Below the pieces are notes generated by a model, which was not told the DNA's origin, did no database searches, and was given only the letters and a program-made list of their open reading frames with translations. 19,979 nucleotides of DNA. It comes from Escherichia coli (lineage in GTDB: Bacteria; Pseudomonadota; Gammaproteobacteria; Enterobacterales; Enterobacteriaceae). The stretch lies in the NCBI RefSeq assembly GCF_003334315.1, contig NZ_QOWR01000070.1. One strand, given 5' to 3'. The stretch's first letter is position 1. The number at the start of each line of letters is the position of its first letter. A program made the translations under genes and the position numbers. Of the stretch, positions 15,248 to 19,775 are shown one piece after another.

Positions 15248-15398
15248 TTTTTCCGCATAACTCACTATCCTTCTGTCATATCATTAAATTTTTCTGATTT
15301 ATTGATCTGGCAGAAGGTTCATCACTGTTTCATTCACCAGATATGGGTTAATCTTTTAATTACAAACTGCGTTGACAGTTGTTGTAAGGAGACCCTGT

Positions 15399-16349
15399 AT
15401 GGCTATGTATCAGAACATGCTCGTTGTTATCGATCCTAACCAGGACGACCAACCAGCATTGCGGCGAGCTGTTTATTTACATCAACGGATTGGTGGCAAA
15501 ATTAAAGCCTTTTTGCCGATCTATGACTTCTCATACGAAATGACCACCCTGCTCTCCCCGGACGAACGTACCGCTATGCGTCAGGGCGTCATCAGCCAGC
15601 GTACAGCCTGGATCCACGAGCAGGCAAAATATTATCTCAATGCTGGCGTTCCCATTGAAATTAAAGTGGTCTGGCATAACCGTCCTTTCGAAGCCATCAT
15701 TCAGGAAGTGATCAGCGGCGGACACGATTTGGTGCTAAAAATGGCGCACCAACATGACCGTCTGGAAGCGGTGATTTTTACGCCAACGGACTGGCATCTG
15801 TTACGCAAATGCCCAAGCCCGGTGTGGATGGTGAAAGACCAGCCGTGGCCGGAAGGAGGCAAGGCGCTGGTGGCGGTGAATCTCGCCAGTGAAGAGCCGT
15901 ATCATAATGCGCTCAATGAAAAACTGGTCAAAGAGACGATCGAACTGGCAGAACAAGTCAACCATACCGAAGTTCATCTGGTTGGCGCTTATCCGGTAAC
16001 GCCAATTAATATCGCGATTGAACTGCCGGAATTTGACCCGAGCGTTTATAACGATGCCATTCGTGGGCAACATTTGCTGGCAATGAAAGCCCTGCGGCAG
16101 AAATTCGGCATTAATGAAAACATGACGCACGTAGAAAAAGGTCTGCCAGAAGAGGTGATTCCTGATTTGGCGGAGCACTTACAGGCGGGGATTGTGGTTC
16201 TGGGCACGGTAGGACGCACCGGTATTTCAGCAGCATTCCTCGGCAACACGGCGGAACAGGTGATTGATCATCTTCGCTGCGACCTGCTGGTCATTAAACC
16301 TGACCAGTATCAGACACCCGTTGAACTGGATGACGAAGAAGACGATTAA
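15399..16349 (+). CDS. uspE: Tandem-domain universal stress protein UspE (316 aa from Met at 15399)
   Basis: Two Usp domains; N-terminus [25 protein letters not shown].. matches K-12 UspE from memory. Confidence 0.9.
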
Positions 16350-16370
16350 CGACTCTTCAATAACTGACAA

Positions 16371-16396
16371 GGCCCGAGTTATCGGGCCTATTTTTT
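16371..16396 (+). terminator. Rho-independent terminator downstream of uspE (GGCCCGA-GTTA-TCGGGCC plus T-run); overlaps the end of convergent ynaJ
   Basis: 7-bp GC-rich stem, 4-nt loop, followed by TATTTTTT. Confidence 0.6.
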
Positions 16397-16398
16397 AC

Positions 16399-16656
16399 TT
16401 ACTGCTCTTCGCCGCCAAGGAAATAAATTCCCAACGGGATTGCCAGCAACACAGTAAAGACCAGGCTATAAACAAAAATCATCGATGACTGAATCACATA
16501 CATTGATGTCGTCCACTCAGACAGCGGAATATTGTACTGTTCTATAACGCCGCCGATGGTCGCGCGAGTCACAACCGACGCCGCAATAATGAAAACCGCC
16601 AACAAACCAAAGAGAAATTTCTTCCCTTTCGCTGACTTCAGTTTCGCCATAATCAT
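16399..16656 (-). CDS. ynaJ: Small inner-membrane protein YnaJ (DUF2534), 85 aa
   Basis: 85-aa ORF with two predicted transmembrane helices; position between uspE and ynaI as in K-12. Confidence 0.8.
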   Translation of the reverse strand: MIMAKLKSAKGKKFLFGLLAVFIIAASVVTRATIGGVIEQYNIPLSEWTTSMYVIQSSMIFVYSLVFTVLLAIPLGIYFLGGEEQ

Positions 16657-16899
16657 GATGTAATCCTTGTGCAGACAAATTTCTTGTTACCTAAACGTAA
16701 CAATACCATGACATTTCACCGTTGTCTGCTCTGAAAACCTCACCTCTTAGCTGGATTTACAATCAACGCATTGATTAGTTAGCTAATGTTGCTACTTCCT
16801 TCCCTGACTATTGATGATCTGAATGAATTGTCGCGGTAAAATAGCCCCGCCAGGGGTTTCCGGCATGACGACAATTATCTGGAGGAGCCTGATAAAACA

Positions 16900-17931
16900 A
16901 TGATCGCTGAACTGTTTACAAATAATGCGCTTAATCTGGTCATTATTTTCGGTAGCTGCGCAGCATTGATTCTGATGAGCTTTTGGTTTCGCCGTGGAAA
17001 TCGTAAAAGAAAAGGATTTTTATTCCATGCGGTGCAATTTTTAATCTACACCATAATTATCAGTGCTGTTGGTAGCATTATTAATTATGTTATAGAAAAC
17101 TATAAACTCAAATTTATCACCCCAGGCGTTATCGATTTTATCTGTACGTCCCTGATTGCGGTTATTCTGACGATTAAGCTATTTCTGCTGATTAATCAGT
17201 TTGAAAAACAGCAGATTAAAAAAGGTCGCGATATCACCAGTGCGCGGATTATGTCGCGTATCATCAAAATCACCATTATTGTGGTGCTTGTTCTGCTTTA
17301 TGGCGAACATTTCGGCATGAGCCTTTCTGGCTTGCTGACCTTTGGTGGTATTGGTGGTCTGGCTGTCGGTATGGCCGGTAAAGATATTCTGAGTAATTTC
17401 TTTTCCGGGATTATGCTCTATTTCGACCGTCCTTTCAGTATTGGCGACTGGATCCGTTCACCGGACAGAAATATCGAAGGTACAGTAGCGGAAATTGGCT
17501 GGCGAATTACCAAAATTACGACCTTTGATAATCGTCCATTGTACGTACCGAACTCGCTGTTTTCGTCGATCAGCGTAGAAAACCCAGGACGAATGACCAA
17601 CCGCCGCATTACCACGACCATTGGTTTACGTTATGAGGATGCGGCAAAAGTGGGCGTTATTGTCGAAGCTGTACGTGAGATGCTGAAAAATCACCCGGCC
17701 ATCGACCAGCGACAAACCTTACTGGTTTATTTCAACCAGTTTGCTGACTCTTCATTGAATATTATGGTTTATTGCTTTACCAAAACCACGGTATGGGCTG
17801 AATGGCTTGCTGCACAGCAAGACGTTTATTTGAAGATTATCGATATTGTACAGTCACACGGCGCGGACTTTGCCTTCCCCAGCCAGACGCTGTATATGGA
17901 TAACATTACACCGCCGGAACAGGGTCGCTAA
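16900..17931 (+). CDS. ynaI: MscS-family mechanosensitive channel YnaI (343 aa)
   Basis: N-terminal transmembrane helices followed by an MscS-like pore and beta domain (..[22 protein letters not shown]..); 343 aa. Confidence 0.88.
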
Positions 17932-17981
17932 ATCAGACATCACTGGCGTTATGCACAAGGGTAACGCCAGTTCCCATCACA

Positions 17982-19595
17982 TCAATGCTTCACAATATAC
18001 ATAGTCCGACTGTACGCCACATCTTCAGGATTATTAATGGGATAACCTTTCAGCCACGGCTTGATTAATCGTCCATTGGTATATTGATAAATTGGTGCAA
18101 TCGGTGCTTGCTCCATGAGGATTTTTTCTGCCGCGTTGTAATCGGCATTACGCGCTTTAACGGTATTTTCCGTCGATGCCTGGGCCAGAACTTTGTCATA
18201 TGCCGGATTGTTAAAGCGTGAAATATTTCCTGAATGCGTTGACGTTAATAATGTCAGGAAAGTGGAGGGTTCATTATAATCCCCCACCCACGAGGCGCGG
18301 ATAACATCAAAATTGCCGGTGTTACGGCTATCGATATAGGTTTTCCATTCCTGATTTTGCAATTTAACATCTACGCCAAGGTTCTTTTTCCACATCGATG
18401 CTACAGCAATCGCAATTTTTTGATGGTTTTCTGAAGTGTTATACAAAAGCGTCAGCTTCAGCGGTTTTTGCGGACCATAACCAGCTGCGCTCAACAAAGT
18501 TTTTGCCTGCGCATTCAGTTCTTCCTGACTCATTTGTTCAAACGGCGAAGGTTCCGGCGTAAATCCCGCGGTAACATCTGGTGTAAAATGCCACGCTGGC
18601 TTTTCGCCCGTCCCTAATACTTTTTCGGTCATCAGGCGGCGATCTATCGTCATACTTAATGCCAGACGAACGCGCTGATCTGCCGTCGGCCCTTTTTGCG
18701 TGTTAAACGCATAATAATAGGTCCCGAGCTGCGGCGGCGTATAAACCTGCCCCGGAATATCCTTCAACAGCTTCTGATACATATTTTTCGGGAAGGATTC
18801 GGTGATATCAATATCCCCCGCGAGGTAACGCTTAGTGGCTGCGGATTCCTGATTAATTGGCAGGAAGGTCACTTTTTGCAGTACCGTTTTGGCGTTATCC
18901 CAATAATGGGTATTCGGTACCACGACCAGTTTTTCATTGACTACGCGCTCTTTAAGAACATAAGCGCCATTGCCGATCAGATTTCCGGGTTTCGTCCACT
19001 CTTTACCGCTTTCTACGTTGGCTTTTTGCACCGGGAAGAAGGCAAAGTTAGCGGTTAAATTCACAAACCACGGCAACGGTTTATCAAGCTGAATTTTCAA
19101 AGTATGGGCATCAACTGCGGTGACGCCAAGCTGGTCAGGCGTAGCTTTACCATCAATAATCGCCTGTGCGTTGTTGATTCCCGCCAGCGCGGCAAACCAT
19201 GCAAATGGCGACAATGTTTTTGGGTCCACCAGACGTTGCCAGCTGTAGACAAAATCTTGCGCCGTTACCGGTGTGCCATCCGCCCATTTTGCGTTATCGC
19301 GCAGGGTAAAAGTCCAGATACGGTTGTCATTACTTTTCCACTGAGTCGCAACGCCGGGGACAATCTCCCCTTTTTCGTTCTGATTCACCAGTCCTTCAAA
19401 CAGATCGCGAATGACCTGAATCTCTGGCAGGCCCACGGCTTTAGCGGGATCCAGCGACGCAGGCTCATCTTTAATGTGGCGCACCAGCTCCTGCTTCTCT
19501 GCCAGTACTGTGCCGCTCGGAACTTCTGCAGCATACGAAAGAGAAATGCTGCTGACCAACAGCGCACAACACGTGACTGAAACAGAGTGCTTCAT
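17982..19595 (-). CDS. mppA: Periplasmic murein tripeptide-binding protein MppA (537 aa from Met at 19595), OppA paralogue
   Basis: Signal peptide (MKHSVSVTCCALLVSSISLSYA), SBP family 5 fold; N-terminus matches K-12 MppA from memory. Confidence 0.9.
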   Translation of the reverse strand: MKHSVSVTCCALLVSSISLSYAAEVPSGTVLAEKQELVRHIKDEPASLDPAKAVGLPEIQVIRDLFEGLVNQNEKGEIVPGVATQWKSNDNRIWTFTLRDNAKWADGTPVTAQDFVYSWQRLVDPKTLSPFAWFAALAGINNAQAIIDGKATPDQLGVTAVDAHTLKIQLDKPLPWFVNLTANFAFFPVQKANVESGKEWTKPGNLIGNGAYVLKERVVNEKLVVVPNTHYWDNAKTVLQKVTFLPINQESAATKRYLAGDIDITESFPKNMYQKLLKDIPGQVYTPPQLGTYYYAFNTQKGPTADQRVRLALSMTIDRRLMTEKVLGTGEKPAWHFTPDVTAGFTPEPSPFEQMSQEELNAQAKTLLSAAGYGPQKPLKLTLLYNTSENHQKIAIAVASMWKKNLGVDVKLQNQEWKTYIDSRNTGNFDVIRASWVGDYNEPSTFLTLLTSTHSGNISRFNNPAYDKVLAQASTENTVKARNADYNAAEKILMEQAPIAPIYQYTNGRLIKPWLKGYPINNPEDVAYSRTMYIVKH

Positions 19596-19775
19596 AAGTT
19601 TCCCTCTAACCGACATTAAAATTGATGCGTAATTATTTGTTTCGCCTTAAAGAAATGCAAACAACTTCCATCAAAAAAGTGACAAAGGAAGCATCAAATG
19701 TTTTAAGTATCAATATATCAAATCAGATTTAGTGTAAATAATAGTCTCCAAAATGCGGTAAAGCACATAGAACTC

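Follow-up and report, generated by a model that had tools for sequence, protein, structure and literature searches.

A stem-loop without a U-tract between the convergent ynaI and mppA genes of Escherichia coli, probably a common 3'-terminal element

The 50-bp gap between the convergent genes ynaI and mppA of Escherichia coli holds a stable hairpin, which we consider, with moderate confidence, to be a 3'-terminal stem-loop devoid of a U-tract and common to the transcripts of both genes, with Rho terminating transcription downstream. It is more likely that this hairpin defines and protects the 3' ends of the mRNAs than that it stops RNA polymerase. A weak contribution to termination, assisted by Rho or by collisions between polymerases, may exist as well.

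The hairpin and its genomic setting

The window, that is, the whole stretch of 19,979 bp that was analysed, is E. coli DNA. A segment of 901 bp around the hairpin matches K-12-derived and other strains with 100% identity and occurs in 5417 of the 5426 complete E. coli genomes. According to the RefSeq annotation, ynaI and mppA are convergent neighbours, and no feature is annotated in the gap between them. The sequence-only reading had described a hairpin in a gap of 50 bp between the two stop codons. The extent of the gap is exact and the hairpin is real, while the coordinates given for it, 17944 to 17971, are shifted by one base at the 5' end. The elements of the locus are as follows:

16900-17931, plus strand: ynaI coding sequence, low-conductance mechanosensitive channel; stop codon TAA at 17929-17931
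17932-17981: gap between the stop codons of ynaI and mppA, 50 bp (1394841-1394890 in MG1655)
17942-17971, no strand: stem-loop (inverted repeat), arms 17942-17951 and 17962-17971
17982-19595, minus strand: mppA coding sequence, murein tripeptide-binding protein, with the RefSeq start, 537 aa; stop codon TGA at 17982-17984

In this part of the window, the MG1655 coordinate equals 1412822 minus the window coordinate, as mapped by sequence. The arms of the inverted repeat are CTGGCGTTA at 17943-17951 and TAACGCCAG at 17962-17970, and one more pair, A17942/T17971, makes a perfect 10-bp stem with a spacer of 10 nt. The hairpin starts 11 nt past each stop codon, in the ynaI sense as well as in the mppA sense. 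Positions 17952-17954 face 17959-17961 in an upper stem that consists, in the K-12-type allele of the window, of a U.G pair, a G/G mismatch and a C-G pair. The structure has the stem-loop of an intrinsic terminator, being GC-rich, with a stem in the range of about 5 to 15 bp and a short loop. Calculation of the folding energy, which had been proposed as a check, gives -18.7 kcal/mol for the 50-nt gap RNA of the plus strand (z = -5.75; matched by none of 200 shuffles) and -17.7 kcal/mol for that of the minus strand (z = -2.83). Moreover, apart from 17942-17971 the 19,979-bp window has no perfect inverted repeat with arms of 10 bp or more and a loop of 3-12 nt; the chance expectation from dinucleotide shuffles is 0.195 such repeats for the whole window and about 0.0005 for a 50-bp gap. 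That the hairpin is real and exceeds chance is confirmed.

Two known classes of elements were tried as identities for the hairpin and rejected. Even at E <= 10, a scan of 16300-19979 gave no match to the Rfam 15 families overlapping 17900-18000, the hits outside this part being at the level of chance, and the scan of the whole window at the Rfam gathering thresholds returned FnrS and McaS only. A REP or other dispersed repeat was rejected as the gap (50 nt) and the hairpin region (42 nt) are single-copy per genome in the 5417 genomes, and no related hairpin sites were found elsewhere in E. coli genomes at the sensitivity of blastn.

Delimited mechanically, the mppA ORF has 544 aa and starts at 19616; it exceeds by 7 codons the RefSeq gene (537 aa, 1614 nt), for which the start is annotated at window position 19595. 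At 16657-16899, between ynaJ and ynaI, the window is without IS5, and K-12 MG1655 and XL1-Blue carry IS5F/insH4 between these genes; therefore, the window does not come from a standard K-12 chromosome, despite the complete identity of its ynaI-mppA segment to K-12. In E. coli MB31 (L002:983-1829), mppA is split by an IS1A element that sits in its 3' part, about 87 nt before the stop codon, and the hairpin is untouched. In the genome collection (ecoli_genomes), 6 of the 5418 places with the gap are on plasmid-labelled records, which may reflect wrongly assigned replicons or the capture of large pieces of chromosome. The two small RNAs found by Rfam are FnrS (4778-4895, minus strand, 134.8 bits) and McaS (8273-8368, plus strand, 118.4 bits). 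A perfect 9-bp inverted repeat at 8331-8359, inside McaS and near its 3' end, is probably the McaS terminator stem, and a second perfect 9-bp repeat, at 4449-4476, is found at the 5' end of an ORF on the minus strand (3140-4513).

As the sequence-only reading had remarked, no strong U-tract follows the hairpin on either strand; the tails are UCCCAUCA (plus) and GAUGUCUG (minus), with 2-3 U in 8 nt. Tail scores of the TransTermHP type range from -2.1 to -3.0. About 20% of all positions of the window reach a score of -2.5, and most of the neighbouring and orthologous canonical terminators score between -3.4 and -5.1. The 7-8 nt right after the stem thus do not form the U-tract of an intrinsic terminator. 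The A-tract and U-tract flanks of bidirectional terminators are absent as well, the flanks on the plus strand being AAAUCAGACAUC and UCCCAUCACAUC. A consensus terminator scan calls the hairpin between uspE and ynaJ and does not call the one between ynaI and mppA.

Read-through, Rho and mapped 3' ends

Published transcript data place a region of Rho-dependent termination beyond the hairpin on each strand (Adams et al. 2021, PMC7815308, Supplementary file 2, from DirectRNA-seq of untreated and bicyclomycin-treated samples), and a steady-state RNA 3' terminus right past it on one strand (PMC10687069, Supplementary Data 2). Together with a tract of biased composition, these features are:

17699, minus strand (MG1655 1395123, plus strand): peak of the Rho termination region in the mppA sense, antisense to ynaI, about 240 nt past the stem
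18060, plus strand (MG1655 1394762, minus strand): peak of the Rho termination region in the ynaI sense, antisense to mppA, 89 nt past the stem
17970-17980, plus strand: steady-state RNA 3' terminus in the ynaI sense, dominant position T17977, from TRS on RNAtag-seq
17972-18021, plus strand: C-rich, G-poor tract directly downstream of the hairpin in the ynaI sense, candidate rut region

In the mppA sense, the reads upstream and downstream of 1395123 number 94 and 14 in the untreated sample and 217 and 236 with bicyclomycin (Rho score 7.3, p = 1.6e-14); in the ynaI sense, the numbers around 1394762 are 41 and 8 untreated and 60 and 73 with bicyclomycin (Rho score 6.2, p = 3.5e-6; both PMC7815308). 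When Rho is inhibited, the coverage downstream of both Rho regions is therefore about that upstream, on each strand, and little Rho-independent termination is visible. Read-through in both directions, which the sequence-only reading had named as the observation that would speak against a terminator, is precisely what these counts indicate, though antisense promoters could be the source of some of the bicyclomycin-induced signal. In the terms of Dar and Sorek, this is bicyclomycin-sensitive read-through beyond a stem-loop, on both strands. Judged from Rho scores taken in 800-nt windows that are centred downstream of the hairpin, and hence indirectly for termination at the hairpin itself, the Rho independence of an intrinsic terminator is not observed. 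Having neither this property nor a U-tract, the hairpin is not a canonical intrinsic terminator.

The 3' terminus in the ynaI sense comes from the sheet 'E. coli - Barsheshet' of PMC10687069, with NC_000913.3 as the reference. The peak spans 1394842-1394852 on the minus strand of MG1655, with 1394845 as the dominant position. Its signal, defined as the local read starts divided by the sum of local and downstream read starts, so that 1 means no read-through, is 0.79, and it is significant in 3 of 3 libraries (adjusted p = 7e-16, 3e-6 and 1.5e-4; PMC10687069), all of one RNAtag-seq dataset, from which this single mapped end at the hairpin derives. Comparison with the sequence puts the end of the ynaI-sense RNA, ...CGCCAGUUCCCAU-3', at T17977, 6 nt past the last base of the stem. 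In this sense only, a 3' end is thus found right after a U-less stem-loop, the tail being UUCCCAU.

Of the published tables in which 3'-end mapping could be consulted, as had been proposed, this one gives an end at the hairpin and the curated Term-seq list of Adams et al. 2021 does not: the latter contains no 3' end at 13948xx on either strand and lists neither ynaI nor mppA, for which low expression could be the reason. In the readable parts of the tables of PMC7815308, Yan 2018, PMC10687069 and TERMITe, there is no mppA-sense 3' end at the hairpin, and the Yan 2018 and TERMITe supplements have no entry for the locus. Full-text searches (ynaI + mppA + terminator; ynaI + mppA) found no literature on the hairpin itself. 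Its ynaI-side 3' end is already listed, in a supplementary table only, and the hairpin is otherwise undiscussed in the literature found.

Composition differs between the two directions. In the ynaI sense, C outnumbers G by 17 to 5 in the 50 nt of 17972-18021, a ratio of 3.4, while the C/G ratio in 200-nt stretches across the window has a mean of 1.03 and a 95th percentile of 1.46. In the mppA sense, there is no C enrichment in the first 75 nt past the stem, and C exceeds G only at +76-150 and +251-325.

Dar and Sorek 2018 (NAR 46:6797) describe Rho-dependent transcripts that end precisely just past stable stem-loops without U-rich tails. Rho is stated there to terminate diffusely downstream, with rut sites located directly downstream of the stem-loop, and PNPase and RNase II to trim the RNA back to the stem-loop. 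Transposed to the ynaI/mppA gap, RNA polymerase coming from either gene would mostly pass through the hairpin. Rho would load on the untranslated RNA beyond it, in the ynaI sense on the C-rich tract, and would stop transcription within the opposing gene, at a distance of about 90 nt in the ynaI sense and about 240 nt in the mppA sense. The 3'-5' exonucleases PNPase and RNase II would then trim the tail to the base of the hairpin, which would in this way fix the mature 3' end and shield the mRNA. We infer that the mapped ynaI end is made by such trimming and not by weak intrinsic termination, and the mppA transcript would likewise end at the hairpin. As counterpoints, a 3' end 6-7 nt past a stem is also expected from intrinsic termination, and in the mppA sense no C-rich tract adjoins the hairpin.

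The hairpin could also be a genuine bidirectional terminator despite its weak U-tracts, aided perhaps by NusA/NusG, by Rho acting at a pause that the hairpin induces or by head-on polymerase collisions, and this we regard as unlikely. A stable hairpin placed symmetrically with respect to both stop codons would suit such a function, the ynaI-sense end is compatible with intrinsic termination, and the tail scores of -2.75 to -3.0 obtained after the G-C pair barely pass the TransTermHP filter. Cooperation between weak intrinsic terminators and Rho is, furthermore, reported in the literature. What argues against it is the equal coverage downstream and upstream on both strands once Rho is inhibited, to which are added the 8-nt tails with so few U, the missing pair of A-tract and U-tract flanks and the absence of a Term-seq peak called at the hairpin by Adams et al. 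2021. Both genes yield few reads, so that collisions between polymerases should be rare. The earlier proposal of a shared bidirectional terminator consequently holds in part: the hairpin is at the common 3' end, folds on both strands and is followed by the ynaI-sense 3' end 6 nt on, whereas an efficient terminator of the intrinsic type is unsupported, with no U-tract and with Rho regions downstream on both strands.

A parallel for a bidirectional terminator is found nearby. The gap between uspE (15372-16349, plus strand) and ynaJ (16399-16656, minus strand) contains, at window positions 16370-16389, the hairpin AGGCCCGA-GTTA-TCGGGCCT followed by ATTTTTT. It has a good U-tract in the uspE sense only, with tail scores of -3.77 versus -2.87 in the ynaJ sense; the ynaJ-side tail is thus as poor as those between ynaI and mppA. 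Published work regards this hairpin as a bidirectional terminator. It serves as a model in single-molecule work on RNA polymerase collisions, in which only 9% of the complexes were released on one of two unidirectional templates and termination was better under convergent transcription (bioRxiv 10.1101/2022.10.23.513370).

Natural alleles, conservation and origin

Position 17953, close to the loop, is polymorphic for G and C, and C is present in most E. coli genomes. The 42-mer with the C allele has an exact match in 2634 genomes, that with the G allele, which is the K-12-type allele of the window, in 1611 of 5417, and about 1170 genomes have further variants of the hairpin. With C, a helix of 13 bp is formed (10 pairs, the U.G pair and 2 G-C pairs), closed by an ACAA tetraloop and folding with -22.1 (plus) and -21.4 kcal/mol (minus). 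G17953 breaks a C-G pair of the upper stem and makes the hairpin weaker by about 3.5 kcal/mol. Escherichia sp. MOD1 and E. albertii have C at this position, and therefore the K-12-type G is probably derived. The U.G pair is replaced by C-G in strain N96 (-24.7 and -25.8 kcal/mol) and by U-A in E. albertii, with a loop of 5 nt (-19.6 and -18.9 kcal/mol); these loop changes retain or strengthen the pairing in the upper stem. N96 also has a deletion of 5 nt directly after the stem. E. albertii has a spacer of 9 nt between the arms, compared with 10 nt in E. coli.

Conservation was assessed in a comparison set of 12 E. coli variant loci (L003-L008, L090-L095), Escherichia sp. MOD1 and E. albertii. 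Variable columns make up 2 of 20 in the core stem versus 18 of 30 in the loop and flanks (Fisher's exact p = 4e-4, for columns that are phylogenetically non-independent). Between E. coli and E. albertii, 18-19 of the 20 core-stem bases are the same, amid a heavily substituted loop and flanks. The substitution A17942G in E. albertii still allows a G.U pair in the ynaI-sense RNA. A second stem variant, G17970A, is found in 2 of 6 sampled minor-allele E. coli genomes, WCHEC040047 (L091) and TUM10828 (L093), and alters the penultimate basal pair to a C.A mismatch in the ynaI-sense RNA and to G.U in the mppA-sense RNA. Both carriers have the YnaI protein WP_000559903.1. Double-sided compensatory changes are absent among six Escherichia sequences, and covariation is no better than in shuffles; covariation is thus uninformative, and therefore the support from conservation rests on the difference between the stem and the loop and flanks. 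An assignment of the functional strand by wobble pairs was tried and rejected as inconsistent, given that the U.G pair 17952/17961 and A17942G fit the ynaI sense only and G17970A the mppA sense only.

These alleles bear on two other explanations. According to the first, the hairpin is a non-functional relic, the stem of an ancestral intrinsic mppA terminator kept by short divergence times. The loss in Escherichia of a U-tract that Citrobacter has, the weakening K-12-type G allele and the segregation of G17970A in the population are all in line with decay. The preservation of the stem between E. coli and E. albertii in such changed surroundings and the RNA 3' end mapped right past the hairpin are not, and the variants that were seen cost at most two basal pairs or one upper pair and leave the long stem in place. 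A mere relic thus seems quite improbable. According to the second, the symmetry serves a DNA palindrome for a dimeric protein, be it a regulator, a roadblock or a nucleoid protein, instead of an RNA element. The two perfect half-sites of 10 bp with their 10-bp spacer would allow this, and symmetry is the sole point in its favour. The site is, however, located between two gene ends, where no promoter-like site was found nearby, it is single-copy with no related E. coli sites at blastn sensitivity, the changes in spacer length and sequence between species preserve the pairing of the hairpin, and the genomic SELEX peaks that are listed near ynaI and mppA are intragenic and away from it. We consider a protein-binding palindrome extremely improbable.

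Outside the lineage of E. coli and E. albertii, the neighbourhood of ynaI and mppA is different. In cryptic Escherichia clades (L009, L011, L012, L088) and in E. whittamii, the convergent neighbour downstream of ynaI is an ORF of 641 aa in place of mppA. In this ORF (L011:3590-5515, minus strand), Pfam recognises caspase (Peptidase_C14) and GH25 muramidase domains, and NCBIfam gives no match. The gap downstream of ynaI in the cryptic clades contains another hairpin, one that has a U-rich tail (-20.5 kcal/mol, tail scores of -2.5 to -5.1), and the comparison with these clades places the rearrangement junction within the last two codons of ynaI. In Citrobacter, ynaI and mppA are 1.4-2.2 kb apart with variable genes between them; among the genes adjoining ynaI, NCBIfam names a PfpI-family gene only.

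The Citrobacter mppA genes are followed by hairpins of their own. In strains NCU1, R56 and Awk 4, the hairpin is ACGCUGGCGCUA-loop-UAGCGCCAGCGU with CUUUUUA or a similar tail (-22.5 kcal/mol); in FP75, it is GGGCUGGUG...CGCCAGCCC followed by GUUUUCUUAUU, with the core CTGGTG/CGCCAG. The U-rich tails (CUUUUUA, UUCUUUA and GUUUUCUUAUU) score -2.85 to -4.1, and the core CGCCAG of the 3' arm is invariant in 6 of 6 aligned sequences downstream of mppA. From these comparisons, it would appear that the E. coli hairpin is the stem of the ancestral mppA terminator, the U-tract of which would have disappeared at the place now taken by the end of ynaI; ynaI would have come to lie against this stem in the lineage of E. 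coli and E. albertii. The 6-bp core that E. coli and Citrobacter have in common could nevertheless be a coincidence.

It is tempting to go further and to see in this locus a recent switch of termination mode. An intrinsic mppA terminator would have lost its tail when the intervening genes went and ynaI was joined at 11 nt from the stem, leaving Rho-dependent genes and a hairpin that caps both mRNAs, the 3' ends of which would be complementary over about 40 nt. As a whole, this scenario is speculative and has only a small chance of being right. If it is true, the mature ynaI and mppA RNAs would have perfectly complementary 3' ends of roughly 40 nt, which could couple the stability of the two mRNAs, for example through cleavage of the duplex by RNase III or through transcriptional interference. 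A stress-induced mechanosensitive channel would in that case be linked with the uptake of murein peptides.

Relation to known systems

The hypothesis that Rho-dependent transcripts possess protective stem-loops at their 3' ends was reportedly put forward by Peters et al. in 2012, and bidirectional intrinsic terminators between convergent genes are said to have been described by Ju, Li and Liu in 2019. The mere position of a hairpin between convergent genes does not make it a terminator of the latter kind, and for ynaI and mppA the published data on Rho inhibition indicate read-through. The locus adds a documented case of a single stem-loop that probably caps the 3' ends of two convergent mRNAs terminated by Rho. 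The stakes are modest, with no bearing on long-standing open questions, and the only mildly novel angle is the evolutionary one of a terminator turned into a shared 3' cap after a rearrangement.

In common with bidirectional terminators, the ynaI/mppA element is a single GC-rich hairpin in a short gap between convergent stop codons, folding on both strands, and the 3' ends of the two RNAs would overlap by about 40 nt if both end at the hairpin. It differs from them in the absence of A-tract and U-tract flanks, in the Rho-dependent regions downstream on both strands and in a 3' end that is mapped on one strand only (ynaI sense, T17977). REPs are likewise extragenic palindromes between gene ends. 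They are, however, multi-copy, with hundreds per E. coli genome, whereas the ynaI/mppA hairpin is single-copy and without REP annotation. A recent preprint proposes that REPs act both as a barrier to exonucleases and in attenuation that depends partly on Rho (bioRxiv 10.64898/2026.03.23.713779).

The mppA terminator of Citrobacter (L027, L029, L031, L022) occupies the same place past the mppA stop codon and has the stem core CTGGCG/CGCCAG in common with the E. coli hairpin (CTGGTG in FP75). The difference lies in its U-rich tail and in another convergent gene; in Escherichia, the end of ynaI replaces the tail. Dar and Sorek 2018 predict that intrinsic termination can switch to Rho-dependent termination by the mere loss of the U-tract, and the comparison of Citrobacter with Escherichia provides a concrete candidate for such a transition.

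The closest likeness is to the protective stem-loops of Dar and Sorek. The ynaI/mppA stem-loop is stable, has the size and energy of a terminator and lacks a U-rich tail; bicyclomycin-sensitive read-through is seen downstream of it, and in the ynaI sense a 3' end a few nucleotides past the stem is accompanied by a tract in which C exceeds G. For the mppA-sense end and for the dependence on exonucleases, the likeness is presumed from the model. Taken together, this suggests that the hairpin fits this class and represents an ordinary, already described arrangement, which differs from the class in being common to two convergent genes, so that both strands of one stem-loop are used.
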